A DNA stretch of 64,000 bases from Bdellovibrionaceae bacterium UBA6502 (GCA_002436415.1 DJMA01000041.1:36410-100409); one strand, 5' to 3'. Positions 20,414-48,331 are shown, numbered from the stretch's first letter. Numbers and translations: made by a program. The notes: a model not told the origin generated them from the sequence alone.

Positions 20414-20416
20414 TGT

Positions 20417-25724: not shown

Positions 25725-25726
25725 GC

Positions 25727-25763: not shown

Positions 25764-25955
25764 AATGAGATTTTTGCCTAGCCCCTTCGGTAGTGTTTTG
25801 TTTGAATATGATACTTTTTTTAAAAAAAACTTAAATAATATTTATACAAGGTATACACTTTCCGATAAGGGTACAGGTTTAAGAAAGATTTGACTAAATT
25901 AGAATATTAAATTTAGTTAACATATTTAAAGAACGTTAATCACTGGAGGGTATGA

Positions 25956-26492: not shown

Positions 26493-26519
26493 AAAAATAT
26501 TTTACTTAAAACCTAAAGA

Positions 26520-26548
26520 GTGTACTATTTTTATAGTACACTTTTTTT
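26520..26548 (+). terminator. Rho-independent terminator after pilA
   Basis: GTGTACTA / TAGTACAC form a perfect 8-bp stem with a 6-nt loop, followed by TTTTTTT. It abuts the next ATG (26549). Confidence 0.8.
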
Positions 26549-27286: not shown

Positions 27287-27289
27287 GTT

Positions 27290-28966: not shown

Positions 28967-28975
28967 TGCGGCCTC

Positions 28976-30670: not shown

Positions 30671-30680
30671 AATAATCCCT

Positions 30681-32129
30681 CTATTTTATTTCAAACATAC
30701 CAAGTTGAAGTTTCTCGTCGATAGGTATTATGGCCTTGTTTTTAATTCGTTTTGATTCTACGAGTTGATGAAAAAGTTGTCGTTTTGAGCTGCATATTAC
30801 TAGGTCTGTATTGAAAACCTCTTTGAGCTTTTGTTCAGGTTGCTCGGTGAATCCTCTTTTTATGTTATAAGAGTTTATAAAGAAGTCTTTAGAAATCATC
30901 AATAAGGATGGGTCGAGAACATCTAGAACTTTAAGCTGCGAATAGTAAAGGGCGTATTGTCCTTGCCACCAATCGCAATTGTAGATTCGTCGAGTATCGG
31001 TTTTAGGGGGCAGCTGTAGTAACGTTTTATAGGCTTCCTCCTGTTTTTTAAAATACGAAATATCTTCTTGAAATTTTATAAAACTGAAGTTAGCCAAGGT
31101 AAAAAGCCCGCAAAGTAAAACGCTAAATAGATGTTTTTTTCCGGTGTGGATAGGAAATTTACTTAGGCTGATGATGAAAGCAAAAATTGATGGGGTGTAT
31201 TCCAAAAAACGAATGGAAATAAATAGGCTTAAAAAGCAAATTAAGCTGGCGATGAGTAGGAATTTAAAATAGCCTTCTTTCAGCTCTCTCCAGCAGGCTC
31301 TGATGCATAAAGCTCCCAAAACCAAGAAAGGCAGAAAAAGTTTTATGGTGGTAAAGGGAGACTGCATTGCTAATTCAGGTCCGTAGGCTAAATCTGGAGC
31401 TCCTAATTGTTGAAGGGCAATCCATAGATGCTTGAGGCTCATTTCTAAACTTTCAGGGAAATAGGGATTTAAGAATAGGCCGGTAATAATTCCTGCTGTA
31501 CCATACTTGATCGCCTTCACATTTAACTTTTTTTCGTAAAGGCTTAGACTAATGCTTAAGAGTATGAAGAATGCAATTGGGATATAAATTGTATGGTAAG
31601 ATAGGCTAAATATTATTGAGAATACAAATAGGTTTTTCCACTTTCGGCCTCTTCCCGCAAGGCAGATTAGGGCGAAGACAAAAATTGCTAGAGTGTGTGG
31701 GCGGATTAGTAAAAGTCTTAGGAGGAATTGAGGGCAGACGAGTAAGCTTACGATCAAGGTGAAAGACATGCTAGGGCTAAGTCTTTTTCGTAGTAAGGCG
31801 TACCAGATATTGATTGTACCAATTCCCAGAAGTAAACTAAGGCTTTGTAGAGCGCTTTCTGAGCCAAAGCGAAGAAAAAGACTACTTAAGACGTGGTAAA
31901 GAAACTCTTTTTCAGGGAAGGATTTGTCCCAGTTTAGACCATAGATTCTATCGATAAAATCGGGTGCAAAATTTTTTAAATATTCTTGTGAGATAAAATA
32001 GTGATAAAAACGATCTGGGTCAGTGTAAATGCTATCTCTAAAAAGATGTGCTAATAGTAGGAAAGCCAAATTGAGAATGAATATGAAAATGTATTCACGC
32101 TTGACTTGTCTACTAAAGGGCCAGACCAT
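30681..32129 (-). CDS. Polytopic membrane protein with STT3/PglB/AglB-like motifs (compact GT-C candidate)
   Basis: 482 aa with at least 10 TMs. The first loop carries TDPDRFYHYF. About 35 aa after the last TM comes DWWQGQYALYYSQLKVLD, reminiscent of [19 protein letters not shown] in PglB (recalled from memory). RBS AGGAG. Confidence 0.55.
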   Translation of the reverse strand: MVWPFSRQVKREYIFIFILNLAFLLLAHLFRDSIYTDPDRFYHYFISQEYLKNFAPDFIDRIYGLNWDKSFPEKEFLYHVLSSLFLRFGSESALQSLSLLLGIGTINIWYALLRKRLSPSMSFTLIVSLLVCPQFLLRLLLIRPHTLAIFVFALICLAGRGRKWKNLFVFSIIFSLSYHTIYIPIAFFILLSISLSLYEKKLNVKAIKYGTAGIITGLFLNPYFPESLEMSLKHLWIALQQLGAPDLAYGPELAMQSPFTTIKLFLPFLVLGALCIRACWRELKEGYFKFLLIASLICFLSLFISIRFLEYTPSIFAFIISLSKFPIHTGKKHLFSVLLCGLFTLANFSFIKFQEDISYFKKQEEAYKTLLQLPPKTDTRRIYNCDWWQGQYALYYSQLKVLDVLDPSLLMISKDFFINSYNIKRGFTEQPEQKLKEVFNTDLVICSSKRQLFHQLVESKRIKNKAIIPIDEKLQLGMFEIK

Positions 32130-34944: not shown

Positions 34945-35065
34945 TGTTTAGAGGACTGAAAAAGGAATGCTATGGTGTTGATTCTAAATCTAGTTATTCT
35001 TTATTCTATAGAAAAAATGAAAGCTGATGTTGGAAGTTTCTAGCTTTTTCAAGATTGAGGTTGAA

Positions 35066-35782
35066 ATGAACAAGGATTTTATTTTATTGAATGCAATAGA
35101 ACTAGCTCTTGTCGAGCCTCCAAAGTCTTTTTTAGGAAAGCAGTCGAAGTTTCGGTCTAAAATTGAAGAAATATGGGAAATTGAAAAAAATAAGAATCCC
35201 AATCTATTCAATGGGCCACTTTTTTCAGTTGTGGAATTTCGGATTGATGAAGTTAGAAAAGACCAGGTTTTGTATGTCTTTGAAACCGATTACAAAAGTT
35301 TTTTAGCTGAACAAAGTGGTGTCGATTTGGGACTCCAGCCTCTTGGTGTTACAGGGGCTATATCAAAAAATTATTTCGGTGAAGAGAAGCTTTTATTTGC
35401 ACAGAGGTCTAAAAACAATTCTATATACGGAGGCTTCTGGGAGCTAGTTCCATCAGGTGGGCTAGAGTTTTTTGAATCAGACTCAAAAGAAGCTTTGCCA
35501 ATTCGTCAGCTGTTGATCGAATTTGAAGAAGAGTTAGGGGCATCAAGGGAGTTAATCGAATCCAGTGAGCTTGTTGCATTGTCCTTTGATTCAAATATCA
35601 AAGTTTACGACTTAATTTATGTCCTAAAAGTGTCCACGAATTTTACTTGGAAGCTTTCTTTAGAGCACGATGATTACGTATTTCTATCTGAACAAGAATT
35701 TGTAGATTCTTATTTAGATAGAAGTTTGCCCAATTGCAAAAATGTTTTTGCTAGCCTTAGAAAATCAGAGAGAGGTATATGA
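35066..35782 (+). CDS. Nudix-like hydrolase (degenerate Nudix box)
   Basis: GGLEFFE...IRQLLIEFEEELGA approximates GX5EX7REUXEEXGU with a longer spacer. The preferred start is ATG 35066 behind GAGG; the ORF track begins at 35027. Confidence 0.5.
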   Translation: MNKDFILLNAIELALVEPPKSFLGKQSKFRSKIEEIWEIEKNKNPNLFNGPLFSVVEFRIDEVRKDQVLYVFETDYKSFLAEQSGVDLGLQPLGVTGAISKNYFGEEKLLFAQRSKNNSIYGGFWELVPSGGLEFFESDSKEALPIRQLLIEFEEELGASRELIESSELVALSFDSNIKVYDLIYVLKVSTNFTWKLSLEHDDYVFLSEQEFVDSYLDRSLPNCKNVFASLRKSERGI

Positions 35783-36381
35783 CAAAACGAAAGATTGTGG
35801 GATTACTAGCAAGAGAGCATGGTTTGTTTGCTCTGAAGGCATTGGTAGATTCAGACAGCTTTGAGATTGACCTGGTATTTACGCATCGTTACGAGCCGAA
35901 ATCTAAGGGTGGCCAGGAAAGGTCTGAGTTTAAACAGTATTTGGACTACTGTTCTGCAAATGGAATTGAACTTGTGGAAGTAAACTCAAAAAAAGAGGCG
36001 AAGGATATAATCAATAAGCTGAACCCGCTCGATAATCTTGATATTTTACTTTCGGTAAGTTGGAGATATTTGGTGGGAGTGGATATTTTGGCTCTATTTC
36101 CATTTGGAGGCATTAATCTTCACAGAGGCCTATTGCCCAATTATCCTGGTGCTGAACCTATTTTACAGGCTCTAAAAAATGGAGATGATAAGGTCTATAT
36201 TACAGCGCATAAAATGATAGAAGAAATTGACCAAGGCGAGCTTATAAAAACTTATGAACACTCTATTAATCACCTGAATTTCGAAAAAATAGATGATAAG
36301 GTGGAATGTATTAAGAAAGAATTGGGGCCACACTTTGGTGTTTTGAGTTTAGAGGCCTTAGCTTTGCGGATGGAGAAGTAA
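35779..36381 (+). CDS. Formyltransferase-fold protein (candidate sugar N-formyltransferase)
   Basis: 200 aa. GGINLHRGLLPNYPGAEP (Asn/His of the formyltransferase catalytic set, compare HxSLLPxxRG) and EEIDQGELI (catalytic Asp). ATGA overlap with the upstream gene. Confidence 0.7.
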   Translation: MTKRKIVGLLAREHGLFALKALVDSDSFEIDLVFTHRYEPKSKGGQERSEFKQYLDYCSANGIELVEVNSKKEAKDIINKLNPLDNLDILLSVSWRYLVGVDILALFPFGGINLHRGLLPNYPGAEPILQALKNGDDKVYITAHKMIEEIDQGELIKTYEHSINHLNFEKIDDKVECIKKELGPHFGVLSLEALALRMEK

Positions 36382-36382
36382 T

Positions 36383-37423
36383 ATGAAAACAAAGTCTTAT
36401 TTTGCCGAAGATCAAGCTCCATACATCGTGGCAGAAATGTCTGGCAACCATAACCAGTCCATGGATATGGCTCTTAAGATTGTTGATGCAGCCGCTGATT
36501 GTGGAGTGGATGCCTTAAAAGTTCAGACTTATACCGCGGATTCTATGACTTTGGATTCTAATAAAGAAGATTTTTTGGTTAATTCAAAAGAGTCCCTCTG
36601 GAAAGGCGAAAGCTTATTTTCACTTTATCAAAAAGCCTACACGCCATGGGATTGGCATAAGCCAATTCAAGAAAGATGTAAGCAGAAAGGAATTGAGTTT
36701 TTTAGTTCACCTTTTTCCAGTGAAGCTGTTGATTTTCTTGAGGAATTAGATGTACCTTTTTATAAAATTGCATCCTTTGAAAATACCGATTTAGAACTTA
36801 TCAAAAAGGTTGCATCTCAAAAGAAACCTATGATCATTTCTACCGGCATGGCGAGTATTGCCGATTTAGAATTAAGCGTTAAAACGGCGCTCGAAAACTC
36901 TTGTCCCGAACTTGTTTTATTGAAGTGTACTAGTTCTTACCCAGCTTCACCTGAAAATACCAACCTAAAGACGATTGAGCATCTTCGAGAGATGTTTGGC
37001 GTCAAAGTTGGTCTTTCGGATCATACTTTAGGAATAGGAGCGGCTTGTGCAAGTGTTGCCTTCGGTGCTTGTTTAATAGAAAAGCATTTTGTTTTAGATC
37101 GTAAGGCAGGTGGTGTGGATGCTGCTTTTTCGCTGGAGCCTTCAGAGATGAAAGCTTTGGTGGATGAAACCAAAAGGGCATTTCAGGCAATTGGAAATGT
37201 TCACTATGGCCCCACAGAGCAAGAGGAAGCCTCCAGAGTTTTCCGTCGTTCTATCTATGTTACTAAGAAAATTTGTGTCGGAGAGGAACTTAGCAGAGAT
37301 AATGTTCGTGTGATGCGTCCAGGTTACGCTCTAGAGCCTAAGTACCTAGATGTCGTATTAGGAAAAAAGGTCAGTCGTGAATTAGATGTGGGTGATCGAA
37401 TTGATTGGGATGTTTTTGGGTGA
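36383..37423 (+). CDS. pseI: Pseudaminic acid synthase (NeuB family)
   Basis: APYIVAEMSGNHNQS and KVQTY motifs, TIM-barrel NeuB core plus a C-terminal SAF domain (VRVMRPG). 346 aa, with pseB/C/F nearby. Confidence 0.8.
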   Translation: MKTKSYFAEDQAPYIVAEMSGNHNQSMDMALKIVDAAADCGVDALKVQTYTADSMTLDSNKEDFLVNSKESLWKGESLFSLYQKAYTPWDWHKPIQERCKQKGIEFFSSPFSSEAVDFLEELDVPFYKIASFENTDLELIKKVASQKKPMIISTGMASIADLELSVKTALENSCPELVLLKCTSSYPASPENTNLKTIEHLREMFGVKVGLSDHTLGIGAACASVAFGACLIEKHFVLDRKAGGVDAAFSLEPSEMKALVDETKRAFQAIGNVHYGPTEQEEASRVFRRSIYVTKKICVGEELSRDNVRVMRPGYALEPKYLDVVLGKKVSRELDVGDRIDWDVFG

Positions 37424-38091
37424 AAAAATATAAGGCTCTTTTTCTTGATTTTGATGGTACATTGGTAGACTCAGAAAGTTTATTGTTCGATGCTTACCGT
37501 CAGTTACTTGCTAGTTTTGCTAAGCCAGCAAGTCAGCAAGAGTTTCAAGGCTATATTGGGCCAAGTCTTTATGAGATATCCAATTTAATAAAAAAACGAC
37601 ATAGCTTAGATTTAGATGTTGATCAAATTTATCAAAGATACATTCAGTTTGTAGAGCTTTCTTATGACACTGTACTTTTGATGCCTGGAGCACAGGACTT
37701 TCTTGATTATGTAGTCGCCAAAGGTTTCCGTTTGTATGTAGTTAGTTCCGCACCATTGTCCATTGTAAGACGGGTCTTGCATAGATTCGGAGTACTAGGA
37801 TGTTTTGAGGATTTTTTTACCTGTGAGTCAGTTGAAAAGATGAAGCCTGATCCTAGTATTTATATTCATGCAATGGAAGAGACCAGGCTTTCCGTTCAAG
37901 ATGTTTTATGTTTTGAAGACTCTGTTGCAGGGGTAAAATCAGCTCTTGGTGCTGGTCTTAAAGTGATTTATTTAAATAAAGACTTTGATAAAGTAATTGA
38001 GATCCCAAAGAGCGAAAACTTAAGGCTGTATTCAAGTTTCTTAGAAATTTTAGATAATGATGTGGCAAGCAGTATTTTGGGGGAAGAATGA
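37405..38091 (+). CDS. HAD-superfamily hydrolase (phosphatase / beta-PGM-like)
   Basis: Motif I LFLDFDGTLVDSE, motif II VVSSAP and a later K...EDSxxG motif. The start is uncertain; an alternative is GTG near 37421. Confidence 0.8.
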   Translation: MGCFWVKKYKALFLDFDGTLVDSESLLFDAYRQLLASFAKPASQQEFQGYIGPSLYEISNLIKKRHSLDLDVDQIYQRYIQFVELSYDTVLLMPGAQDFLDYVVAKGFRLYVVSSAPLSIVRRVLHRFGVLGCFEDFFTCESVEKMKPDPSIYIHAMEETRLSVQDVLCFEDSVAGVKSALGAGLKVIYLNKDFDKVIEIPKSENLRLYSSFLEILDNDVASSILGEE

Positions 38092-38936
38092 GTCAAATTG
38101 TTAGTGTTATAATCCCAACTTATAATCGCCCAGAATTTTTGGGTAGGGCTTTGGATAGTGTTTTGTCTCAATCATATACCGAGCTAGAAGTATTAGTGGT
38201 TAATGATGGGTCAGAGCAAAGCTATGATGAACTTAAGGCTCACTATAAAGACGAACGTATTATATGGATTGATCTTGAAAAAAACGCAGGCGTTTGTGGA
38301 GCAAGAAATGCCGGAATCGATGCTGCCAAAGGAGATTTTGTCTGTTTTCTAGATGATGACGACGAGTTTTTAGAAGATAAACTGAAACTTCAAGTGGAGC
38401 ATTTTATAAAGTTTCCAGAAATTGACATTGTAGTGGGGGATGTCATATTTCGAAGGGAAGATATTTCTAAAGTAATCCTGAATCGTCATGAGGGAAATCA
38501 GTATAAAGAGTTTATCAAAAGATATTCCCTGTGGGGCACCGCGATACCTCTAATTAGACGAGAAATTCTTGAAAAAGGTGTTCGCTTTGATGGTCGGTTT
38601 TGGATGAATGAAGATTATGACTTTTTAATTCAGCTAGCAAAATATGCTAATTTTGGATTTGTTCCGCAGCCCTTAGCAATTCATCATGAAAGCAAAGACC
38701 AATTCTCATACAATTTTATGAGGCGTTTTAAGGGGACACTGCAATTATTTTTCAAATATTGGCGACAGTCTCTTTCCTTTGGTTTTTTATTTTTTCTAGA
38801 TCAGTTTATTAAAACCATTGTTCTATGTTCAGTGTTTTTACTAGCGCACTATTTTGGAAAGTCTTGTTATGTGGCATTTACTAGGCTTGAGAACTGGATT
38901 CGCTTTGATCTTCTTGGGAAAACTTCAAATAGCTAA
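38088..38936 (+). CDS. GT2 family glycosyltransferase
   Basis: VSVIIPTYNRPEFL, VVNDGSEQ and LDDDDE motifs. 282 aa. Confidence 0.85.
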   Translation: MSQIVSVIIPTYNRPEFLGRALDSVLSQSYTELEVLVVNDGSEQSYDELKAHYKDERIIWIDLEKNAGVCGARNAGIDAAKGDFVCFLDDDDEFLEDKLKLQVEHFIKFPEIDIVVGDVIFRREDISKVILNRHEGNQYKEFIKRYSLWGTAIPLIRREILEKGVRFDGRFWMNEDYDFLIQLAKYANFGFVPQPLAIHHESKDQFSYNFMRRFKGTLQLFFKYWRQSLSFGFLFFLDQFIKTIVLCSVFLLAHYFGKSCYVAFTRLENWIRFDLLGKTSNS

Positions 38937-39026
38937 TTGCACAAGTAAATCCATCAAATCAGAAGCTGTTTTTAGCTAACTGATTTGTACTTGCCTCTTT
39001 CTCACATCTTGATAACATCTTAAGTA

Positions 39027-39866
39027 GTGAAGAACCAGGTAGTTATCGATGCACAAAATCAAGACATATATCTTTTGGAGAAATCCAAAGAGCTTTTTCG
39101 TTATAGTGATTTATTGAAAAGCATTGTTCGAAGAGAGTTTAAGGTCTTGTACCGTAGAACTGTACTAGGGCCAATCTGGTATTTGCTTCAGCCTTTGCTA
39201 GCATCCCTTATTTATGTGGTGGTGTTTAATAAAGTTGCTAATATCTCTACCGATGGATTACCGAGTATCCTGTTTTATTTGCTAGGAACCTCACTTTGGG
39301 GACTGTTTTCTGATAGTTTGGTGAAAAGCTCTGATGTATTTGTTATGAACCAACTACTATTTGAGAAGGTATATTTTCCTAGATTAATTATGCCCATCGC
39401 TATGGTGATTTCCACTTTCCCTAAGTTTATAATGCAAATGTTACTGTTTTGCTTGGTATGGATCTACTACTTTGCGATGGGAGAAATTTCACCTTCGATT
39501 CATCTGGTTTATTTTCCTTTTTTAGTGGGGCTTACCGCTCTATTTGGTTTTAGTATAGGTTTGATTGTGTCTGCTATTACTGTGAAGTTTAGAGACCTTT
39601 TGTATGTATTAAATTATTTAATAAATATTTTGATGTATTTGAGTCCAGTGATTTACCCGGTTTCAATTGTCGCTGAAAAATACAGATGGATGACCTGGGC
39701 AAATCCTTTAACTGGTTTTTTCGAGCTGTCTAGATTAGGGGTTTTGGGGAAGGGTGAGATGAACCTTGAAGGCCTTGGGGCGGGGGTTTTGTTCGTTTTT
39801 GTTGTTCTGTATATAGGCTTAAAAGTCTTTTTTAAGGTGGAAAAAAGTTTTATTGATACAATATGA
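39027..39866 (+). CDS. wzm: ABC-2 type polysaccharide export permease (Wzm/TagG-like)
   Basis: GTG start, 279 aa with six TMs. Conserved REFKVLYRRTVLGPIWYLLQP start of ABC-2 polysaccharide exporters. ATGA overlap with the ATPase gene. Confidence 0.85.
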   Translation: MKNQVVIDAQNQDIYLLEKSKELFRYSDLLKSIVRREFKVLYRRTVLGPIWYLLQPLLASLIYVVVFNKVANISTDGLPSILFYLLGTSLWGLFSDSLVKSSDVFVMNQLLFEKVYFPRLIMPIAMVISTFPKFIMQMLLFCLVWIYYFAMGEISPSIHLVYFPFLVGLTALFGFSIGLIVSAITVKFRDLLYVLNYLINILMYLSPVIYPVSIVAEKYRWMTWANPLTGFFELSRLGVLGKGEMNLEGLGAGVLFVFVVLYIGLKVFFKVEKSFIDTI

Positions 39867-40630
39867 GTAATGTAGTTTTAGAAATAGAAAATCTATCGAA
39901 AGAATTTTATGTAGAAAACCCGCTATTAGGTGGGCTCTATGCTACCTATGAGCTAATGTTCAAAGATCTTAGCGAAGTGGATTCTAGTCGAAAACTCTTG
40001 GCGGTAAACTCTGTGAATTTAAGACTAAAGAAATCTCAAATTTTAGGAGTAATTGGTAAAAATGGTTCCGGGAAATCAACCTTATTAAAACTAATTTCTA
40101 GAATCACTTACCCAACGGGCGGAAAAATTTCTTATACGGGAAGTTTAACCCCAATGCTTGAGGTCGGAACGGGTTTTCATCCTGAATTGTCTGGTAGAGA
40201 GAATATAACTTTAAATGCAACTATTCATGGAATGAAACTAAAGGACATTGAACCTTTGATGGACCAGATCCTTGAGTTTTCAGAAATAGGACGACAAATT
40301 GATAGTCCTATAAAAAGGTATTCTTCAGGTATGGTTGTAAAGCTAGGTTTCGCTATTGCTAGTTATATTAAGACTGATATTTTACTTTTGGATGAAACTC
40401 TTTCCGTTGGAGATCACGCTTTCAAAAGAAAGTGTATTCATGCTTTGAAAGCTTTGGTGAAAAGAGAAGGACGTTCTATATTAGTGGTTAGTCACGATAT
40501 GGATATGGTACGAGAAATTTGTGATGAAGTTTGTGTTATGAAAAAAGGTGTGTTGAGCGCGCCTATGGAGGCCGAAGCGGCCATTTCTAAGTACATCCAG
40601 GATGATGAAATTGAAGCCTGGTCTTTCTAG
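39863..40630 (+). CDS. wzt: Polysaccharide export ABC transporter ATP-binding protein (Wzt/TagH-like, short form)
   Basis: Walker A GKNGSGKST, signature YSSGMVVKL, Walker B ILLLDE. 255 aa, so no C-terminal carbohydrate-binding extension. Confidence 0.85.
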   Translation: MSNVVLEIENLSKEFYVENPLLGGLYATYELMFKDLSEVDSSRKLLAVNSVNLRLKKSQILGVIGKNGSGKSTLLKLISRITYPTGGKISYTGSLTPMLEVGTGFHPELSGRENITLNATIHGMKLKDIEPLMDQILEFSEIGRQIDSPIKRYSSGMVVKLGFAIASYIKTDILLLDETLSVGDHAFKRKCIHALKALVKREGRSILVVSHDMDMVREICDEVCVMKKGVLSAPMEAEAAISKYIQDDEIEAWSF

Positions 40631-42125
40631 AAAAGTTCTATTTGTAAATATAATGTCCTCTTTCACTCCTCATTTTGAAACAGAATTGGAGTTGATGGAG
40701 GAGCGAAGTCAACAGGCAGCGGAAATTCATTTTGTACGTTGTAAATCAAAAATCCCATGCTGCTTTGCCAATCCAAAGCATTTAAAGGCTTATTGTGATT
40801 ATTGCGTACATCGTAGTTCTCGGGTGAATGATTTTTTCCCTCGGGCCATAGAAAAAGATGTAGACCAATTTTGGAAGCAAGAAGATAAAGTTTTTTTTAA
40901 TTCATTAAGGACTCAGTTTTCTAGTCTTAAAGAGTTGTATGACTATAAAATTAAATATTGTGATATCGACTTTGACATAGGACAGGCGGTTTGTTGTAGT
41001 TTGGTTTCGATATGTAGAGATAGTTCTGAAAGTCTCTTGAAAGAGCAGAACTTGATCGACTCCTTGTTTTTGACCGCCTTTTATCAGCTGGTGAGCTTAA
41101 GCAGACTGATAGAAAGTGAGCAATACGATGAAGTGATTATTTTCAATGGTCGCTTTGCAAGCGTTCGCGGAGTACTTCGTTATTGTCAAAGTAAAAATAT
41201 AGACATCTACTGCCATGAAAGAGGTGGTGATTTCTATCGCTACGCCATCGTAAAACAAGATACAATACATTCGTTGGCAACACATAAAAACAAATTGGAG
41301 TCTTTAAAGAAGAGCTTTACCAAAAAATCTGAGTTGTATAAAATGGGTGAAGACTTCTTTGAAAATCAAAGAAAGGGAAAAGTCTATTCTTGGAAATCCT
41401 ATATTACCGAGCAAGAGCATGGAAAGTTGCCTGATAGCTTTCAAGAAAGTCTAAGGAAAGTCTCCATTTTTATTTCTAGCGAAGATGAGTTTTTTGCTCT
41501 AGATGATTTTAAGGTTTACTTTTTTGAAGACCAGGTGGAGGCCATTCGCTATATGGTTTCTAAATTGAAAGATGTTTTAGGAAAGAGTATTTCGCTATTT
41601 ATTCGAATGCACCCTAACTTGGCTGGTATTGATAATCATTTTATAAGGTCCATCAAGGCTTTAGAGCAAGAAGGTCTTAATGTAATAGACGCTGATTCTA
41701 ATGTTAGTTCCTATGCTCTGGTAGATCAGTCAGATCTAATTATAACTTTTGGATCTACGGTTGGTGTGGAGGCCTGTTATGTTGGGAAACCAGTAATATT
41801 GATGGGAACCACATGGTATGAAGATTTAGACATTTGCTCTATCCCTAAAAGTCCTGAAGACCTTATCGAAAAAATAAAAAATGAAAATGAAACCAGAGAT
41901 AAAAGTGATGCCATTTTATATGGCGCCTATATCTCTAGTTTTGGTGAGAAGTTTAAATACTTCCAAGCCGAAGGCCTTTTTAAAGGAAGATTTAAATCAA
42001 TTCGCATTGGACATAGATTTTTTAATTTCCTGCAGAGAGTGATAGAGGAAAAAGTCTTTCCTTCTTTTTTTACAAGGCGTAGCGAAGAACGTCGAAGAAT
42101 GGCCTTTAAGAATTTGTTGGATTAG
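40602..42125 (+). CDS. Capsule-synthesis (KpsC/KpsS, PF05159-like) family protein with N-terminal Cys cluster
   Basis: IIFNGRFASVRG, LFIRMHPN and LIITFGSTVGVEACYVGKPVILMG match Capsule_synth family motifs as I recall them. N-terminal C-x6-CC...C-x2-C. An alternative start is ATG 40653, just after the wzt stop. Confidence 0.6.
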   Translation: MMKLKPGLSRKVLFVNIMSSFTPHFETELELMEERSQQAAEIHFVRCKSKIPCCFANPKHLKAYCDYCVHRSSRVNDFFPRAIEKDVDQFWKQEDKVFFNSLRTQFSSLKELYDYKIKYCDIDFDIGQAVCCSLVSICRDSSESLLKEQNLIDSLFLTAFYQLVSLSRLIESEQYDEVIIFNGRFASVRGVLRYCQSKNIDIYCHERGGDFYRYAIVKQDTIHSLATHKNKLESLKKSFTKKSELYKMGEDFFENQRKGKVYSWKSYITEQEHGKLPDSFQESLRKVSIFISSEDEFFALDDFKVYFFEDQVEAIRYMVSKLKDVLGKSISLFIRMHPNLAGIDNHFIRSIKALEQEGLNVIDADSNVSSYALVDQSDLIITFGSTVGVEACYVGKPVILMGTTWYEDLDICSIPKSPEDLIEKIKNENETRDKSDAILYGAYISSFGEKFKYFQAEGLFKGRFKSIRIGHRFFNFLQRVIEEKVFPSFFTRRSEERRRMAFKNLLD

Positions 42126-42804
42126 AGCATCTGAGTTTAAATTTCAATCTAGCCAGTTCAAGGTCTGTTGTTGTATTGATATCCTGTGCTTCTAGTTCTG
42201 ATACTTCATAACCAATGATTTTACCACCATAGATAGACTTAAACTTTTCTAGACTGGAGACCTTTCCCCAATAAAACTCACCGATATCAAAATAATGTGG
42301 ATCGAGATCTTGGCTTCTGCTCCAAAGGTATTTTTGGCCAGGCATTTGAATAGCATTTTCTTTTTTTATAAAAGCCCTTTGTGGCGGTGAAGAAAACTTA
42401 CATATCGGGTAGCAGAAGTCCGCATCTTCTGCGGAAAAATTTTTGTATGCTTCAGTAATTCTTTTACTTTGAATCAATGGACTTGAGGCGTAAATACAGC
42501 AAAAATGCTCATAAGTTTCTGGCAGTTGCTTAAGGCTGTAGTTCAAGGCAGAGTAAGTGGAGGCTTCGTCGTTCGAGACTTCTTCTGTTCTTAGAAAAGG
42601 AGCTTCAGCTCCTAAAGCTATTGCAAGCTCTGCTATTTGAGGCTTGTCAGTTGAAACGATTACTCGATCAAAAAGCTTTGATTCAAGAGCTGCTTCGATA
42701 GGATAATGTAGGATTGGATTTCCTTCAAATTCAATTAGGTTTTTATTGGGTAGGCGTTTACTGTTTCCTCTGCCAAGAATTATTGCGACCTTTGAATTAG
42801 ACAT
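42106..42804 (-). CDS. pseF: Pseudaminic acid cytidylyltransferase (CMP-NeuAc synthetase family)
   Basis: KVAIILGRGNSKRLPNKN and the CTP_transf_3 core. The preferred start is ATG 42804 behind GGGAG (232 aa); the ORF-track start at 42909 adds 35 unlikely residues. Confidence 0.8.
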   Translation of the reverse strand: MSNSKVAIILGRGNSKRLPNKNLIEFEGNPILHYPIEAALESKLFDRVIVSTDKPQIAELAIALGAEAPFLRTEEVSNDEASTYSALNYSLKQLPETYEHFCCIYASSPLIQSKRITEAYKNFSAEDADFCYPICKFSSPPQRAFIKKENAIQMPGQKYLWSRSQDLDPHYFDIGEFYWGKVSSLEKFKSIYGGKIIGYEVSELEAQDINTTTDLELARLKFKLRCSNPTNS

Positions 42805-42954
42805 GATATCTCCCTTGGCATAGTTTCTCATTTTAAAGTGAAAATGCCTAGAATAGCTTCGATCTAACTGGTAAGTGACTTTAGGCGTTAAGCGTTTTAT
42901 CAAATACAAAAAATACTTCTGTTGTAATAAAATCTGAACGTGCTTGGGGGTAAG

Positions 42955-43980
42955 ATGCTAGATGACAAGTCGATTTTAATAACAGGTGGTACAGGCTCAT
43001 TTGGGAAGGCCTTTGTGAAACGACTTTTAACGGAACATCCTAAAATCAAAAAAATCATCATTTATTCTAGAGATGAATTTAAGCAATCAGAGATGTCGCA
43101 AATTGAATTATTTCAAGAACATGCGTCTAAGCTTCGATTTTTTATTGGCGATGTTCGCGATGCAAAGCGATTACGCAGAGCCTGTGAAGGTGTAGATATA
43201 ATTATTCATGCAGCGGCCCTTAAGCAGGTGCCGGCGGCCGAATACAATCCAATGGAGTTCGTCAAAACCAATGTCTTAGGTGCTGAAAATGTGATTGAGG
43301 CTGCTTTCGACTCGGGAGTAACTAATGTGGTTGCTCTTTCTACAGATAAAGCTGCTGCTCCTATTAATCTTTATGGGGCAACCAAGCTCTGTTCGGATAA
43401 ACTGTTTGTTGCGGCCAATAACATGAAAGGAAGTCGGGAGTTGTCATTGTCTGTGGTTCGATATGGCAATGTAATTGGCTCCCGTGGCTCGGTGGTACCT
43501 TTGTATTTAAACTTTTTAAAACAAGGGCTCTCAGAGCTTCCCGTTACCGATACTAGAATGACTAGATTCAATATTTCTTTAGATGAAGGAGTGGATATGG
43601 TATTTCATGCCATTGAAAACTCTTGGGGCGGAGAAGTCTTTGTGCCTAAGATACCATCTTTTAAAATTACAGATTTAGCAGAAGCAGTTGCCCCTAAATT
43701 CTCCATTAAAGAAATCGGGATTCGTCCTGGGGAGAAACTTCATGAAGAGATGATTACAGAGACAGACTCTTTCAATACATTAGATTGTGGAAAGTATTAT
43801 GTGATTTTACCAAGTATGCCCACTTGGAATCTCGACGAGTATCAAAATGCCTTTTCAGCCTCCTTCGTAGAGCATGGATTTAAATACAGTTCAGATAGAA
43901 ACTCACAGTGGTTAAGTGTTGAAGAGTTGAGAGACTTGGTAAAACAACATGTTGACCCTAGTTTTCAAGTGGTAAAATAG
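42955..43980 (+). CDS. pseB: UDP-N-acetylglucosamine 4,6-dehydratase (inverting)
   Basis: ILITGGTGSFGKAF, YGATKLCSDK (YxxxK) and overall FlaA1/CapD-like short form. The preferred start is ATG 42955 behind GGGGG. Confidence 0.9.
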   Translation: MLDDKSILITGGTGSFGKAFVKRLLTEHPKIKKIIIYSRDEFKQSEMSQIELFQEHASKLRFFIGDVRDAKRLRRACEGVDIIIHAAALKQVPAAEYNPMEFVKTNVLGAENVIEAAFDSGVTNVVALSTDKAAAPINLYGATKLCSDKLFVAANNMKGSRELSLSVVRYGNVIGSRGSVVPLYLNFLKQGLSELPVTDTRMTRFNISLDEGVDMVFHAIENSWGGEVFVPKIPSFKITDLAEAVAPKFSIKEIGIRPGEKLHEEMITETDSFNTLDCGKYYVILPSMPTWNLDEYQNAFSASFVEHGFKYSSDRNSQWLSVEELRDLVKQHVDPSFQVVK

Positions 43981-45141
43981 ATGAAAGAGTTTATTCCTTA
44001 TGGCTGCCAGGATATTAGTGAAAAAGACATTGAAGCGGTTATCAAGGTCTTAAAGTCAGATTTTATCACTCAGGGGCCTTATGTTGAAAGATTTGAACAA
44101 GACATATCCAACTATGTAGGGTCCAAGCACTCCGTTAGTTTTAATTCAGCAACATCAGCTTTGCATAGTTTGTGTTTGGCAATGAACTTAGGTGCAGGTG
44201 ACTTTTTATGGACCAGCCCTATCTCCTTTGTGGCTAGTTCAAACTGTGCATTGTATTGTGGCGCTGAGGTAGATTTCGTAGATATAGATCCTCTTAGTTT
44301 CAATTTATGCCCCGATAAGTTAGAGGTAAAATTACAGCTAGCTGAAAAGTCAAATTGCTTACCAAAAATTTTGGTAGTGGTACATATGGGTGGGGCTAGT
44401 GCGGAAATGCTAAAAATTTCTAGGTTGGCAAAAAAATATAATTTTAAAGTCATTGAAGATGCCTCCCATGCCTTAGGAGGGGAGTACGAATCTAAAAAGA
44501 TCGGGGCTTGTCAGTATTCTGATGCTTGTGTCTTTAGTTTTCATCCTGTGAAAATGATTACTTCTGGGGAGGGTGGGCTTTGTACAACGAATGATACTGA
44601 ATTGTTCGAAGCTATGCAACTCTTTAGGAGTCACGGAATTACTAAAGATCTCTCTAAATTTATAAAAGAGCCAGGAGGGGCTTGGTATTACGAGCAACAA
44701 AAACTTGGCTTTAATTATAGAATGACGGATATACATGCTGCCTTGGGAAGCTCTCAGTTGCAGCGTTTGGATCAATTTTTAAAAATACGTAACGAGTGGG
44801 CCTTACGATACAAAGAAGAACTTGGCGACTTAGGCATAGGAATGCAAAGTTTTTCGGATGAACTTTACTCTAGTTATCATCTATTTTTGATACAGCTAAA
44901 GTCTCAAGAGCAAAGGGATAGTATCTTTGCTGCTATGAGAGCGGAGAGGATTGGTGTAAATGTTCATTACATCCCAATATTTCTACAGCCTTATTACCAA
45001 AGAATGGGGAAATATTCTGAACAAGATTTTCCCAATGCCATGAATTACTACAAGCATTGCTTGAGTTTACCGATGCATACAAAATTAGATGATGAAAAAT
45101 TCTCTAGAGTCCTAGATAGTTTAAAAATCAATCTAAGTTAA
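43981..45141 (+). CDS. pseC: UDP-4-amino-4,6-dideoxy-N-acetyl-beta-L-altrosamine transaminase (DegT family)
   Basis: IPYGCQDISEKDI start typical of PseC. PLP-Lys context FSFHPVKMITSGEGG. The ATG directly follows the pseB stop. Confidence 0.88.
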   Translation: MKEFIPYGCQDISEKDIEAVIKVLKSDFITQGPYVERFEQDISNYVGSKHSVSFNSATSALHSLCLAMNLGAGDFLWTSPISFVASSNCALYCGAEVDFVDIDPLSFNLCPDKLEVKLQLAEKSNCLPKILVVVHMGGASAEMLKISRLAKKYNFKVIEDASHALGGEYESKKIGACQYSDACVFSFHPVKMITSGEGGLCTTNDTELFEAMQLFRSHGITKDLSKFIKEPGGAWYYEQQKLGFNYRMTDIHAALGSSQLQRLDQFLKIRNEWALRYKEELGDLGIGMQSFSDELYSSYHLFLIQLKSQEQRDSIFAAMRAERIGVNVHYIPIFLQPYYQRMGKYSEQDFPNAMNYYKHCLSLPMHTKLDDEKFSRVLDSLKINLS

Positions 45142-45143: not shown

Positions 45144-46463
45144 CTATTCTTCAATTTTCTTTAAAAGCTTTGCATCTACTAGAGCTTTAATGAAAGGCAA
45201 TAGCTCATATAGAGAGATTTTCATTTTATTAGCGATGTCGACCAGATCATGCTCTCCATCTGAAAAGCTCAACAGATATAAAAATGCATTTTGTGATAGC
45301 TTGGTTTTGTTGGCGGCACCAATGCTGTGATATAGGTTTCTTTTGCCAAGCATTGGTTCGCAGTGTGGGTTTAAATTTTCATACTTACCAAAACTTTCAA
45401 AGCATAGAATCACTTTCATATAAAATTCAATGCTTTCCTGAAAAGCTTCGAAAGAGATGAAGTCTTTGTTATCAAGTGAGGTGTGGTATTCTTTGTAGTG
45501 AGTGTACATGGATCTAGTTATTGATCCAACGGGAAGATCGAAGGCTGGGGAGCAAAACTGCCGTTCATCACTTCCCGTGGGGAAAAAGTCATGTATTTTG
45601 TAGTTTTTAAGCCCTGAAAAATTCATCAAGTTCATACAGATTTTATCAATAGCACTATCGCCTTGCTTTGATTTTTTGTAATTCCACGCGTGTTCATCTG
45701 CAACGCAAGTAGCTACGAGTCCACCGACGCAATTGTCTTTTATCTCTTCACCATATTTAGAAAGGTAGCTAATGCTACCGATAGTTTCGGGAACAATCAT
45801 AAGGCGATAGTTAAAATTTCTTTCAGGCAGTTGACTAATTAGTTTACCAAGAAAGCTAAGGAGGATTGGGCCGGAGAGTTCGTTGTTTGCCATGCTTGGG
45901 TGGCAAAGGTAAGAACTAAGAAGGAACTCTTTTTTGGAGGAGTTTGTTGCAGGAATCACTTTGTGACCCCAATTTAACTGACCATCAAAATGTTCGGCCT
46001 CAATTTTTACTAGATATTCTTCGTCGCATAGCTGAATTCTTTGGTTGTGGGATAGGCAAAAGCCCCAGCGTCTTTGGTAATATGAGGTCACGTAGGGGAT
46101 GGCCTCCGGAAGATCTTCTAGAGAATAAAGGTGCTCTTGTAAATCTTCAAGTTTAACCAAGCTATCTACGGCTGTACTGTAATTCAATACATGTAGGTTA
46201 TTGTTCTTTATATCGATAACTTTTTCGCCTTCTTTGTTTGCAATAAAGGCCTCAGTAATTTTCCATTCTTGGGGGACAGTCCAATCGAAAACCGATGTGC
46301 CGGAGGCGATGGATTCTATCTCATAAGGCAAAATTTCTTGTAAAATACGGAGAGATTTTCTGAAACCCTCGCCAGTGATACTTCTTAGGATTGGCCAAAG
46401 TCTATCGAAATAGCTCTCTAGGTCATTTGGTTTAATTTGATTTTTTTGAATTTCAACTAACAT
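45144..46463 (-). CDS. DUF4910 / aminopeptidase-like domain protein with C-terminal winged-helix
   Basis: LWPILRSITGEGFRKSLRILQEILP...SGTSVFDWTVPQEWKI matches the family signature as I recall it. 439 aa. Convergent with pseC, with a 2-nt gap between the stops. Confidence 0.75.
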   Translation of the reverse strand: MLVEIQKNQIKPNDLESYFDRLWPILRSITGEGFRKSLRILQEILPYEIESIASGTSVFDWTVPQEWKITEAFIANKEGEKVIDIKNNNLHVLNYSTAVDSLVKLEDLQEHLYSLEDLPEAIPYVTSYYQRRWGFCLSHNQRIQLCDEEYLVKIEAEHFDGQLNWGHKVIPATNSSKKEFLLSSYLCHPSMANNELSGPILLSFLGKLISQLPERNFNYRLMIVPETIGSISYLSKYGEEIKDNCVGGLVATCVADEHAWNYKKSKQGDSAIDKICMNLMNFSGLKNYKIHDFFPTGSDERQFCSPAFDLPVGSITRSMYTHYKEYHTSLDNKDFISFEAFQESIEFYMKVILCFESFGKYENLNPHCEPMLGKRNLYHSIGAANKTKLSQNAFLYLLSFSDGEHDLVDIANKMKISLYELLPFIKALVDAKLLKKIEE

Positions 46464-46486
46464 AGAGATCCTATTTTACAAAAAAA

Positions 46487-47158
46487 TTAAAGCTTAACGA
46501 TAAGGTCCCAAGAGGCAAAAATATTGTTCTCGGTTTTCTTTGGGAAATAGTCTTTTGTTTTGTTTAATTTTAAATTTAAAATCTCACTTTCTTTGAATAT
46601 GTCTTCTATTTCTTCTTTAGAAAAAAAGTGAACAGGGCCAATGCCTTGGAAAGGGCCATCTTTGTAGTTATCTCTCGTATTGCCATTGTCGCCGATAGAT
46701 TCTCCGGATTCTCTCGCTGTATGTTCGGTCGAGTACCAATCTATTCCAATATAATGTGCATCTTCTTTTGCGAAGTCTTTAAGCTGCTGCAAGGTCTTTT
46801 TTACAGCTTCTAACGAGACACAACACATTGCACCTCGGTCAAAAATATAGTCAAACTTCAAATCAAAAGGAATGTCTTTGGTAAAGTCACTCGCTTTTAG
46901 GTTGTCTTTAAGTTCAGGGAAGCGGCCTTTCAGTTTTTCAATGATGTTAGGACTACCATCTATTCCAAAGTACTCAACATTAGGAAGTGATTGGAAAAAC
47001 GGTATATTAGCTCCGGCTCCACAGCCAATTTCTAAAACTTTGACAGAGCTAGTTCTATCATAAGTCTTATAGAAATAGCTGATTAAATTGGGCCATGGCC
47101 AAACGCTAATGTGGCGGTTGTTTTGATAGGTGTCTTCCCAATTTTGTGAAAAGCTCAT
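46487..47158 (-). CDS. Class I SAM-dependent methyltransferase
   Basis: SAM motif I VLEIGCGAGANI and post-I acidic GID. 223 aa. 4-nt overlap with the upstream gene. Confidence 0.8.
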   Translation of the reverse strand: MSFSQNWEDTYQNNRHISVWPWPNLISYFYKTYDRTSSVKVLEIGCGAGANIPFFQSLPNVEYFGIDGSPNIIEKLKGRFPELKDNLKASDFTKDIPFDLKFDYIFDRGAMCCVSLEAVKKTLQQLKDFAKEDAHYIGIDWYSTEHTARESGESIGDNGNTRDNYKDGPFQGIGPVHFFSKEEIEDIFKESEILNLKLNKTKDYFPKKTENNIFASWDLIVKL

Positions 47159-48168
47159 GTTAGCTCCTTAGTTGTCAGGTTATAATATTGGATACGGTAA
47201 TAGGCTATTAGGTCTCCGCCAAAACTCAACTTAAAACGGCCACGTTCAGGGCTGTTAATGCCTTCAAAGTCTAATACTTGAAGTTCAAGCTTTTTTAAGG
47301 ACTCTATAGATTTCCACATGGCGTAACTTCCCATGCCAGCTTCGATGATTTTTTTGTTAGAGGCACCATAAAGAAAGTGTGCCTTCTTAAAGCCAAAAGA
47401 AAAAAGATTCGCTGTAACTAGTTCCTTTTTTTCTGAATAGAGGAAGTACAATTTAAGTTTGTCTTGATAGTTTTCAAAAAGCATTCTAATACTTTGAATC
47501 TCATTCTCAAGCTCATCCATATAGTTTGATGCAGCTTGTTTGTATAACAAAAGAAAGGCTTCAATGTCCTTAGACTCTTCAAAGTGAAAGGAGTTGGCAA
47601 AGCCTTTTCTGATTTCTCGACGTCTTAAAGTACTTAAGTTTTGGGTCCAATCATCGGACTTAGCATTGTATTCGACAAGGCTTTTCAGATTTAAAAAGCT
47701 AGTATACCTAGTTGTGATTTTATATTTTTCATCGATGTTTTTACTGTGGTAATTAAACCACTGAAAAGGGCGAATATCGACGATCTCTGGAATTAGGCAG
47801 AAGTCAATCGTTTCGAAGTAGTTTGGTAACTGTTCGGCGATAAAGTTGGAGATTTCATAAATCTGAGAATTTTTTTTCGATTTGGATTTTAAATTTAAAA
47901 TTTCACCAGAAAAAAGAAAGCCAGAATGTATAGCGCCATTTTTAAAAACAAGATTCTTCCCGGCGTTTTCTGTTAAACCAAAAAAGATGGCCTTTATGCT
48001 ATGGTTTTTCTGGATCAAAAAGCATCGGTTTTCTTGGGAAAAGTTTTTAAAAAAATGCGGCTCAAAAAAGCAACTTGCTTGGGGGCTGTTCGCTAAAAAA
48101 TCCATCCAAATGCCCAATTGGCTATGTGTATTCAAATCAATCTCTTTAAAGCTCAAAGCATCAGACAT
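47155..48168 (-). CDS. FemAB-like / Acetyltransf_6 GNAT-fold acyl(aminoacyl)transferase
   Basis: The C-terminal LDFEGINSPERGRFKLSFGG is typical of FemAB/BioF2-like GNAT proteins. The preferred start is ATG 48168 behind AGAGGG; the ORF-track TTG is at 48207. Confidence 0.65.
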   Translation of the reverse strand: MSDALSFKEIDLNTHSQLGIWMDFLANSPQASCFFEPHFFKNFSQENRCFLIQKNHSIKAIFFGLTENAGKNLVFKNGAIHSGFLFSGEILNLKSKSKKNSQIYEISNFIAEQLPNYFETIDFCLIPEIVDIRPFQWFNYHSKNIDEKYKITTRYTSFLNLKSLVEYNAKSDDWTQNLSTLRRREIRKGFANSFHFEESKDIEAFLLLYKQAASNYMDELENEIQSIRMLFENYQDKLKLYFLYSEKKELVTANLFSFGFKKAHFLYGASNKKIIEAGMGSYAMWKSIESLKKLELQVLDFEGINSPERGRFKLSFGGDLIAYYRIQYYNLTTKELT

Positions 48169-48256
48169 TATCCCTCTCGTGCAGTCTATAATACTAAAAT
48201 AACTCAAGTTTAGTGTCTAGGGGCTTTTTAATCTTGCTTGGGTTTCTTTTTTTGGC

Positions 48257-48294
48257 TCTCGGCCCTTGACGCCACCAAATCCAGCCCCATATTT
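48257..48294 (+). promoter_or_regulatory. Sigma-32 (RpoH)-type heat-shock promoter upstream of dnaJ
   Basis: TCTCGGCCCTTGAC - 14 nt - CCCCATATTT compared with the E. coli consensus TCTCNCCCTTGAA N13-17 CCCCATNTA. It lies 38 nt upstream of the dnaJ ATG. Confidence 0.65.
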
Positions 48295-48331
48295 AATAAG
48301 ATGTTAAATTTAAGTGATTTAAGGTGGATCT

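Follow-up and report, generated by a model that had tools for sequence, protein, structure and literature searches.

Pseudaminic acid (Pse) and the legionaminic acids decorate flagella, pili, capsules and lipopolysaccharide (LPS), and it is the N-acyl groups on these sugars that determine charge, antigenicity and phage susceptibility. A cassette of three genes that very probably tailors the N-acyl pattern of such a nonulosonate lies beside pseC in a 64,000-nucleotide stretch of DNA from Bdellovibrionaceae bacterium UBA6502 (GCA_002436415.1 DJMA01000041.1:36410-100409), the whole of which is referred to here as the window. On the minus strand and in order of transcription, the cassette encodes a FemX-like protein of the tandem-GNAT type (gene 1), a class-I S-adenosylmethionine (SAM)-dependent methyltransferase (gene 2) and a DUF4910 protein (gene 3). 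The identical contig is present in Tara Oceans assemblies, and the window is a piece of a marine metagenome.

Cj1295 of Campylobacter jejuni NCTC 11168 is of the same family as gene 3 by published description (DUF2172, putative M28 zinc peptidase; PMC6321876), and it adjoins pseB and pseC. It is genetically required for Pse5(2,3-di-O-methylglyceroyl)7Ac, a form of Pse that bears a methylated acyl group at N5 instead of acetyl, and cleavage of the C5 acetamido group has been proposed (Hitchen et al. 2010, PMC3068675). Furthermore, in 16,130 genomes there is a strong correlation between the presence of Cj1295 and that of the pse genes (PMC13130089). The C. jejuni system differs from the window in its di-O-methylglyceroyl product, in that no FemX-like partner has been reported, and in the phase variation of Cj1295 through a poly-G tract, which gene 3 does not share. 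The Cj1295 locus presumably also carries genes for an acyl carrier protein (ACP), FabH and HAD-type proteins.

CA_C2195 of Clostridium acetobutylicum, which has a solved structure (PDB 3K9T), has the same three domains and His ligands as gene 3 and sits in a nonulosonate/flagellin glycosylation cluster (PMC4000134). Its single zinc site consists of His189, Asp195 and His324, and like gene 3 it has lost the M28 catalytic pair. In the 2014 structure paper Das et al. proposed a role in sugar modification over that of a peptidase, and listed transacylation or deacylation as options (PMC4000134). However, Asp195 corresponds in gene 3 to Asn194, which is followed by Glu195, and CA_C2195 has no FemX-like neighbour but lies next to genes for an ATP-grasp ligase, an ACP and N-acetyltransferases (PMC4000134, Table 2). 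The link between DUF4910 and modified Pse is already published through Cj1295 and CA_C2195, and the initial annotation of this DNA, made from the sequence alone, erred in knowing of no assigned function for DUF4910, given the Cj1295 genetics (PMC3068675) and the 2014 proposal (PMC4000134).

Gene 1 has its described counterparts in FemX/FemABX and in Sba18 and Sbb17 of streptothricin-type antibiotic pathways, which share its tandem-GNAT fold (TM-score 0.63-0.76) and an aligned FK..FGG motif, but its identity to FemX/FemABX is only 12-13% and its predicted acceptor is a nonulosonic acid. The structures of Sba18 and Sbb17 have been determined in complex with streptothrisamine, a compound with an amino sugar, and the reaction of these enzymes is of the type proposed for gene 1. 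The predicted product class, aminoacyl or capped aminoacyl nonulosonates, is also represented in nature. Leg5GluNMe7Ac, an N-methyl-aminoacyl nonulosonate, occurs on Clostridium botulinum flagellin. Similarly, Leg5Ac7Ala is found in Escherichia coli O161, which has the 'alanyltransferase' Lea3 (PMC7685785), and Leg5Ac7AcAla in Vibrio vulnificus (PMC7371886), although in these two organisms, compared here by description, the aminoacyl group is at N7 and needs no deacetylation. In addition, the type B flagellin glycan cluster of Clostridioides difficile contains a FemAB-superfamily gene, CDR20291_0244, together with a methyltransferase domain and an ATP-grasp enzyme, but this cluster makes a glycan other than a nonulosonate, and a DUF4910 partner has not been described for it (PMC5207246).

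In a literature search whose coverage of subscription journals was incomplete, and which is therefore weak evidence, no report was found of FemAB proteins acting with nonulosonic acids or of transfer RNA (tRNA)-dependent chemistry on pseudaminic acid. The same incomplete coverage yielded no report of the pairing of DUF4910 with FemX-like proteins, of its breadth, which includes abundant marine lineages, or of the cytidylyltransferase fusions described below. The FemX-like partner family and the tRNA-dependent nonulosonate aminoacylation that it implies thus appear undescribed.

The three genes of the cassette

The cassette occupies the following positions of the window.

45144..46463, minus strand: gene 3, DUF4910 with an inserted DUF2172 and a C-terminal HTH_47 (439 amino acids, aa)
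46487..47158, minus strand: gene 2, class-I SAM-dependent methyltransferase (223 aa)
47155..48171, minus strand: gene 1, FemX-like tandem-GNAT transferase (ATG at 48171, 337 aa)
47155..48207, minus strand: mechanical open reading frame (ORF) of gene 1 (TTG start at 48207, 350 aa)
48172..48331, no strand assigned: divergent intergenic region between the cassette and dnaJ, the probable cassette promoter region by position only

ORF calling finds three co-oriented minus-strand ORFs within 45144..48207. They are real genes, and they encode the FemAB-like protein, methyltransferase and DUF4910 protein that the initial annotation had named near this place; its boundary at 45144 stands, while the one at 48207 overshoots by 36 nucleotides (nt). 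The start of gene 1 is most likely ATG 48171 and not TTG 48207, as judged from a preceding GAGGG Shine-Dalgarno-like motif, from the public gene call of 337 aa on the identical contig, and from an alignment in which the Met at 48171 is the start common to all homologues. Translational coupling, which had been proposed for all three genes, fits genes 1 and 2, whose stop and start overlap as ATGA (47155-47158) with AGGAG upstream, but not genes 2 and 3, which are separated by a 23-nt spacer with its own AGGA. The cassette was also rightly said to converge on pseC with stops 2 nt apart and no visible terminator between them. The pseC stop codon ends at 45141 and that of gene 3 covers 45144-45146, a consensus scan of this junction detected no intrinsic-terminator-like site, and no G+C-rich inverted repeat or hairpin was found there. 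That the convergent transcripts collide or overlap, as the initial annotation expected, is a conjecture drawn from this lack of a predicted terminator. The convergent arrangement of pseC and the DUF4910 gene is kept in one relative (L011), with 77-90% identity. At the other end, the cassette/dnaJ region contains a single weak sigma-70-like match (minus strand, 48219..48191, 9 of 12), and since the matches of the promoter scan there are not above shuffled expectation, no cassette promoter is claimed.

Homologues of the cassette proteins are found far beyond chance, with E values down to 1e-297 and 9e-221. Gene 3 matches DUF4910 (E 1.4e-86), DUF2172 (5.6e-36) and HTH_47 (1.8e-20) in Pfam, in an order in which PF16254 spans residues 20-356, PF09940 is inserted at 66-156 and PF16221 follows at 361-435. 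It aligns with 3K9T (CA_C2195) at E 1e-112 over residues 13-435. Among 182 DUF4910 homologues, the His zinc ligands are conserved (H188 in 180, H327 in all 182), and E226, D299, E300 and D331 vary little or not at all. The position of the third zinc ligand, N194-E195 in gene 3, covaries between two states, N-E in 146 sequences and D-[S/N/G] in 35, which suggests from the alignment that the acidic ligand may occupy one or the other of two adjacent positions, shifted by one residue; the solved structure 3K9T represents the minority state (D-x). True M28 aminopeptidases have a catalytic Asp and Glu along with five ligands for two zinc ions. The positions of this Asp and Glu are taken in gene 3 by S190 and P225, conserved in 174 and 179 of the 182. 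Identity as an M28 peptidase was rejected on this ground, and gene 3 should not be filed as a peptidase because the M28 catalytic residues are absent. The MH clan also includes N-deacylases such as ArgE, DapE and aminoacylase-1, and gene 3 is predicted to be a zinc-dependent N-deacylase that frees a sugar amine.

Gene 1 is a member of a family of proteins of about 325 aa, with 476 representatives of 50%-identity clusters at E<1e-30 in an exhaustive profile search. On its own, the window protein does not exceed the Pfam gathering cut-off for PF13480 (Acetyltransf_6) or PF02388 (FemAB); it matches PF13480 at E 0.002 and 18.5 bits, under the 22-bit cut-off, and scores 20 bits against a cut-off of 260 for TIGR03019. 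Acetyltransf_6 is nevertheless matched by 35 of 44 sampled family members at E<=0.01 (best E 5.7e-17), and FemAB by 17 of the 44. A single-sequence search of gene 1 against PDB sequences returned nothing useful, and profile and fold searches were needed. The AF2 model (pLDDT 87.4, pTM 0.86) has the two-lobed tandem-GNAT fold of FemX, and its top Foldseek match is Weissella FemX (1ne9, E 6e-13, TM 0.66); others include Sba18 (9wqy, TM 0.66/0.76), Sbb17, FemA (1lrz) and MprF-type aminoacyl-phosphatidylglycerol synthases. The matches at ranks 1-10 are all aminoacyl-tRNA-dependent transferases, and the acyl-CoA-dependent tandem GNATs, namely clavulanate Orf (2wpw), VipF and Eis, rank lower. Similarly, all eight matches of the family profile to PDB sequences are aminoacyl-tRNA-dependent transferases (E 3e-6 to 1e-2), among them Staphylococcus aureus FemX at 3e-6 and Sba18/Sbb17 at 3e-5. 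Across the 44 sequences K313 is invariant and F312 at least 90% conserved, and the profile consensus FKlSFGG aligns with RFKLGFGG of Sba18/Sbb17, the window protein having RFKLSFGG. We take this C-terminal Phe-Lys motif to correspond to K305 of Weissella viridescens FemX, an equivalence drawn from the motif and not from a direct alignment. By fold and profile, the 'FemAB-like' label of the initial annotation is correct at the level of superfamily and modelled fold, and gene 1 is predicted to be an N-aminoacyl or N-acyl transferase acting on a pseudaminic acid amine.

Gene 2 has a Rossmann-fold methyltransferase domain and matches Methyltransf_12, 25, 31, 23 and 11, with the first three over their gathering cut-offs (PF08242 46 bits against 30, PF13649 41 against 27, PF13847 40 against 27). 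Its glycine-rich SAM motif, LEIGCGAG at residues 42-49, has G45 and G47 invariant and G49 at least 90% conserved among 22 sequences. The best solved relatives of the profile of this 22-member subfamily are phosphoethanolamine N-methyltransferases (E 5e-22 to 1e-16), which hints at amine methylation. None of the NCBIfam models of the pseudaminic acid pathway, including any for a Pse-associated methylase (presumably TIGR03587), matches gene 2 at E<=0.01; its highest-scoring NCBIfam model, that of the DVU_1556 family, reaches 26 bits where the cut-off is 155.

Linkage and fusions across genomes

A scan of one genome per GTDB species gave 80 loci with a gene 1 homologue, which are 23-34% identical to the window protein, apart from L011 at 77%. 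These loci span more than a dozen phyla and come, among others, from Bdellovibrionota, Campylobacterales, Prochlorococcus, Pelagibacteraceae, Pseudoalteromonas, Chlorobi, Bacteroidota and Verrucomicrobiota, as well as from Spirochaetales, Fibrobacterales, Myxococcia, Dehalococcoidia, Desulfovibrionaceae, several Beta- and Gammaproteobacteria and a Thermoplasmata metagenome-assembled genome (MAG). Neighbours were counted by tblastn with the window proteins, which is an insensitive single-sequence test. A DUF4910 gene is present in 67 of the 80 loci and lies immediately upstream of the FemX-like gene on the same strand in 39; a NeuB-family synthase is found in 36, a DegT aminotransferase in 33, the methyltransferase family of gene 2 in 26 (mostly adjacent), and the full trio in 23. 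When only loci with at least 8 kb on both flanks are counted (n=41), DUF4910 is present in 36, a NeuB- or PseF-like gene in 25 and the methyltransferase in 22. Furthermore, three additional metagenomic gene 1 homologues (30-38% identity) each directly adjoin a DUF4910 gene, and two of these three loci also hold the methyltransferase and a NeuB gene.

De novo clustering of the neighbourhoods resolves two layouts. The first contains an iron-containing alcohol dehydrogenase, DegT, a cytidylyltransferase, NeuB, DUF4910, the FemX-like protein and a radical-SAM/SPASM protein, and in one case the cytidylyltransferase is fused to a C-terminal part that was read by eye as PseG-like. The second contains the methyltransferase, the FemX-like protein, DUF4910, a flavin adenine dinucleotide (FAD)-dependent amine oxidase and a GNAT protein, and in Pseudoalteromonas it lies in flagellin glycosylation islands with Maf, FliD and flagellin. 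Genes for a NeuB-type synthase and a cytidylyltransferase are as a rule close by, and NeuB, DUF4910, FemX-like is the common gene order. An additional N-acetyltransferase, of the GNAT or PglD-like kind, is encoded in many of the cassette loci.

Some recurrent neighbours were seen besides these. The FAD amine-oxidase-like protein accompanies the methyltransferase-containing layout in 16 loci, and in 28 loci of the other layout the gene for the radical-SAM/SPASM protein comes right after the FemX-like gene; the trio loci among these include L023, L057, L060, L061, L072, L078 and L082, and the duo loci include L016, L026, L033 and L058. Carbamoyltransferases and B12-radical-SAM proteins also recur near the cassette. 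The recurrence of FAD amine oxidase, radical-SAM and carbamoyltransferase neighbours suggests further processing of the transferred group.

DUF4910 also occurs in fusion proteins. In five loci from at least three lineages (L019:8026-10008, L063:6145-8121, L036:188-2230, L044:6772-8814 and L007:1813-3786), CTP_transf_3, a cytidylyltransferase domain of the nonulosonate type, is fused to a complete DUF4910/DUF2172/HTH_47 protein, the hosts being two Pelagibacteraceae, Sulfuritalea, Methylovulum and one Tara contig. These fusions link DUF4910 with the activation of nonulosonates. Two further proteins (P0201 and P0246) join DUF4910 to an AAC(3)-like N-acyltransferase (Antibiotic_NAT), and another (P0067) joins Antibiotic_NAT to a FemX-like domain. 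Where no FemX-like gene is adjacent, DUF4910 genes adjoin AAC(3)-like genes (L092, L093), a MaoC dehydratase or, in L094, an ACP, and in L091 DUF4910 lies in a polysaccharide locus with cytidylyltransferases and no obvious acyltransferase. On this comparison of gene content, DUF4910 is the constant element and its N-acyltransferase partner the variable one. The CTP_transf_3 fusions and the gene order after NeuB point to chemistry at the stage of the free or cytidine monophosphate (CMP)-activated nonulosonate.

An apparent methyltransferase-FemX-like fusion in L090 was discarded as an artefact of ORF calling, in which an N-terminal extension overlaps the methyltransferase gene in another frame; the window methyltransferase has no BLASTP match to this ORF.

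The initial annotation read the trio as a tailoring operon that adds N-acyl or N-aminoacyl and methyl groups to a nonulosonate and proposed co-occurrence with nonulosonate genes as a check. The counts in the 80 loci are in favour of that co-occurrence, and together with the five CTP_transf_3-DUF4910 fusions this linkage supports the tailoring reading.

The surrounding glycan locus

Gene 3 is flanked by pseC, pseB and pseF, with pseI 7.7 kb upstream, and the locus contains the following features.

35027..35782, plus strand: NUDT22-like ORF of 251 aa (AF2 model, no family match)
35027..38091, plus strand: the NUDT22-like Nudix ORF, a formyltransferase-like gene (Formyl_trans_N 1e-16), pseI (PseI TIGR03586, 483 bits, cut-off 340) and a HAD phosphatase (HAD_2 4e-28)
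38088..42125, plus strand: GT2 glycosyltransferase, Wzm/Wzt ABC exporter and Capsule_synth-like transferase (Pfam/NCBIfam matches)
42106..42909, minus strand: pseF, CMP-pseudaminic acid synthetase (TIGR03584, 234 bits, cut-off 206)
42940..45141, plus strand: pseB and pseC (TIGR03589 PseB, 517 bits, cut-off 408; TIGR03588 PseC, 520 bits, cut-off 424)

The canonical six-enzyme Pse set (PseB, C, H, G, I and F) is incomplete here. PseB, PseC, PseI and PseF exceed their equivalog cut-offs, and the scan for canonical PseH and PseG, which took in 40 ORFs of the window from about 8.5-48.2 kb and, as two of them, from 53.8-55.3 kb, gave no match. The formyltransferase-like gene and the 251-aa ORF are directly upstream of pseI, and the HAD phosphatase follows it; the formyltransferase-like gene (35779..36381), pseI and the HAD phosphatase gene (37405..38091) are operon companions of the 251-aa ORF. 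This ORF has an invariant Nudix-box-like motif and no Pfam or NCBIfam match, and human NUDT22 (E 5e-14) is the closest match of its AF2 model (pLDDT 82.8). NUDT22 is a UDP-sugar pyrophosphatase. The formyltransferase-like protein probably stands in for PseH, which would give a 7-N-formyl sugar, and the Nudix and HAD proteins probably replace PseG, perhaps in a non-orthologous bypass from UDP-sugar through sugar-1-phosphate to free sugar. Aeromonas flagellin glycosylation islands that lack PseG carry a 'hypothetical protein + methyltransferase + HAD-IA hydrolase' set (PMC7874193). The genes at 38088..42125 would assemble and export the glycan that carries the modified sugar.

With regard to pseF, the mechanical ORF (TTG start, 267 aa) is longer than the public call of 241 aa and overlaps the end of the Capsule_synth-like gene by 20 nt, and the true start is probably internal to it. 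Just upstream of the glycan locus is a type IV pilus cluster (18713..32129) with PilB, PilT, PilC, a sensor kinase, a sigma-54 regulator and a PilA-like pilin at 25956..26492, and the glycan might be used for pilin glycosylation. After the pilus genes come a 245-aa ORF and, on the minus strand, three large ORFs at 27290..32129 (558, 564 and 482 aa), which have no family match. Upstream of the pilus cluster, 8514..16019 holds lipid A/LPS-core genes, comprising lpxB, lpxK, an LpxL-like acyltransferase, two heptosyltransferase-like proteins and a UDP-GlcNAc 3-dehydrogenase-like oxidoreductase, so that several loci for the cell envelope stand in a row in the window.

Proposed chemistry and its rivals

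We infer the chemical steps, the modified position, the donor and the order of the steps in the route that follows. The locus would make CMP-activated Pse from UDP-GlcNAc through PseB, PseC, PseI and PseF, with the formyltransferase-like protein acylating the 4-amine in place of PseH, and with the NUDT22-like Nudix hydrolase and the HAD phosphatase replacing PseG. The DUF4910 protein, as a single-zinc M28-like hydrolase, would then take an N-acetyl group off Pse, with N5 as the likeliest position, while the sugar is either free or CMP-activated. The FemX-like protein would put a new acyl group on the freed amine, most likely an amino acid from aminoacyl-tRNA, and the methyltransferase would methylate the product, most likely at the new alpha-amino group. 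Finally, the modified CMP-sugar would be used by the glycosyltransferases of the locus and exported by Wzm/Wzt. This complete chain of deacetylation, tRNA-dependent aminoacylation and methylation, by which the cassette would exchange the N-acyl group on pseudaminic acid, is put forward tentatively, with a confidence that stops just short of even.

The N5 of Pse inherits the acetyl group of (UDP-)GlcNAc, and any other group at this position needs prior removal of the acetyl for this reason. Together with the Cj1295 phenotype and the N-deacylases of the MH clan, the origin of the N5 acetyl therefore makes de-N-acetylation by DUF4910 followed by re-acylation the most economical explanation. In addition, de-N-acetylated and N-formylated nonulosonates have been observed as CMP-sugars, which agrees with a late-stage placement of the chemistry (bioRxiv 10.64898/2026.04.20.719630).

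Several points weigh against this chain. We know of no DUF4910-family enzyme that has been assayed. The conserved residues of CA_C2195 match no known peptidase site (PMC4000134), and the fusion of DUF4910 to an acyltransferase could instead mean one concerted transacylase. Tandem GNATs that depend on acyl-CoA have the FemX fold as well, so that tRNA dependence does not follow from the modelled fold, and since the locus is without PseH, the FemX-like enzyme could acylate the 4-amine made by PseC. Class-I methyltransferase similarity does not reliably separate N- from O-methylation, and the methyltransferase is an accessory because it is absent from two thirds of the FemX-like loci. Furthermore, 13 of the 80 FemX-like loci have no DUF4910 gene, and several Desulfovibrionaceae cases lie outside glycan loci; an alternative deacetylase family that might have displaced DUF4910 non-orthologously was looked for in the FemX-like loci without DUF4910, and none was found.

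The Desulfovibrionaceae homologues (L040, L049, L054, L059 and L077) have no DUF4910 or nonulosonate genes nearby, and their neighbours are regulators, including sigma-54 activators, and radical-SAM, PrmA, HAD and FIST proteins. They possibly form a separate orphan subfamily with another acceptor.

A broader version of the de-N-acetylation and re-acylation route is possible, though on balance doubtful. It holds that a widespread two-enzyme module, found in Pelagibacteraceae, Prochlorococcus, Campylobacterales, Chlorobi, Pseudoalteromonas, Bdellovibrionota and the Thermoplasmata MAG, re-tailors CMP-nonulosonates, with DUF4910 as the N5 de-N-acetylase and the FemX-like family as tRNA-dependent transferases. 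Product diversity would come from optional capping enzymes, for instance the methyltransferase, an AAC(3)-like acyltransferase, an FAD amine oxidase or a radical-SAM enzyme.

The same cassette could act on the same sugar with another donor. In this alternative, the FemX-like protein would use acyl-CoA or acyl-ACP (with, for example, a hydroxybutyryl or glyceroyl group), and the methyltransferase would O-methylate what has been transferred, in the manner of the C. jejuni Pse with its di-O-methylglyceroyl group. Acetyl-CoA enzymes of the tandem-GNAT type (2wpw, VipF, Eis) share the fold, the only product genetically tied to DUF4910 is an O-methylated hydroxyacyl (PMC3068675), and other DUF4910 genes adjoin ACP, MaoC dehydratase or AAC(3)-like genes. 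However, aminoacyl-tRNA-dependent transferases fill the first ten places of the fold search and account for all eight profile matches, the window holds no gene for an ACP, an acyl-CoA ligase or an FkbH-like protein near the cassette, and the solved proteins closest to the methyltransferase methylate the nitrogen of primary amines, which leaves an acyl-CoA or acyl-ACP donor rather unlikely.

Nearly the same weight, which is to say a low one, is given to the view that the FemX-like protein replaces PseH and aminoacylates the 4-amine of the UDP-sugar, the future N7, so that no deacetylation is needed. DUF4910 would then act like an aminopeptidase to trim or edit the aminoacyl or peptidyl side chain, or remove a formyl group, and the formyltransferase would act on the side-chain amine. 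The missing PseH match among the scanned ORFs and the aminopeptidase-like fold of DUF4910 are in keeping with such a route, as are the N7-alanyl legionaminic acids of E. coli O161, with Lea3 (PMC7685785), and V. vulnificus (PMC7371886). On the other hand, an editing peptidase is difficult to reconcile with S190 and P225 in place of the M28 catalytic Asp and Glu (PMC4000134), and in the many cassette loci with a separate GNAT or PglD-like N-acetyltransferase the FemX-like protein would be an extra. The cytidylyltransferase fusions and the order after NeuB also speak for a late-stage substrate, and the Cj1295 phenotype is at N5 (PMC3068675).

It is improbable that DUF4910 and the acyltransferase form one transacylase complex, or that DUF4910 is a non-catalytic partner that binds the substrate or tRNA through its winged helix, with no free amine arising in either case. 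The tight adjacency, the acyltransferase fusions and the C-terminal winged helix-turn-helix domain could be understood in this way, and transacylation was suggested by Das et al. (PMC4000134). The invariant zinc ligands and several acidic residues argue for catalysis instead, DUF4910 is also found without an acyltransferase nearby (L091), and free-amine CMP-nonulosonates occur naturally (bioRxiv 10.64898/2026.04.20.719630). Finally, the idea that the trio is next to pseC by chance and modifies, for example, peptidoglycan or another metabolite is very improbable and strongly disfavoured: the cassette is on its own strand, flanked by dnaJ, and some Desulfovibrionaceae homologues have non-glycan contexts, but against this stand the fusion proteins and a linkage with DUF4910, NeuB, cytidylyltransferase and DegT genes that is repeated in different phyla.

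To conclude, the proposed exchange of an N-acyl group on pseudaminic acid, with the window locus as a minimal three-gene version of such a tailoring system, bears on how non-acetyl groups reach N5, which has been a question since the Cj1295 genetics of 2010. The predicted reaction, tRNA-dependent aminoacylation of a nonulosonate, would if true be the first tRNA-dependent modification for a sialic-acid-like sugar. Cultured Pseudoalteromonas species, such as P. rubra and P. luteoviolacea, carry the same trio in their flagellin glycosylation islands, which makes the prediction directly testable, and the enzymes would be useful for making modified CMP-nonulosonates.

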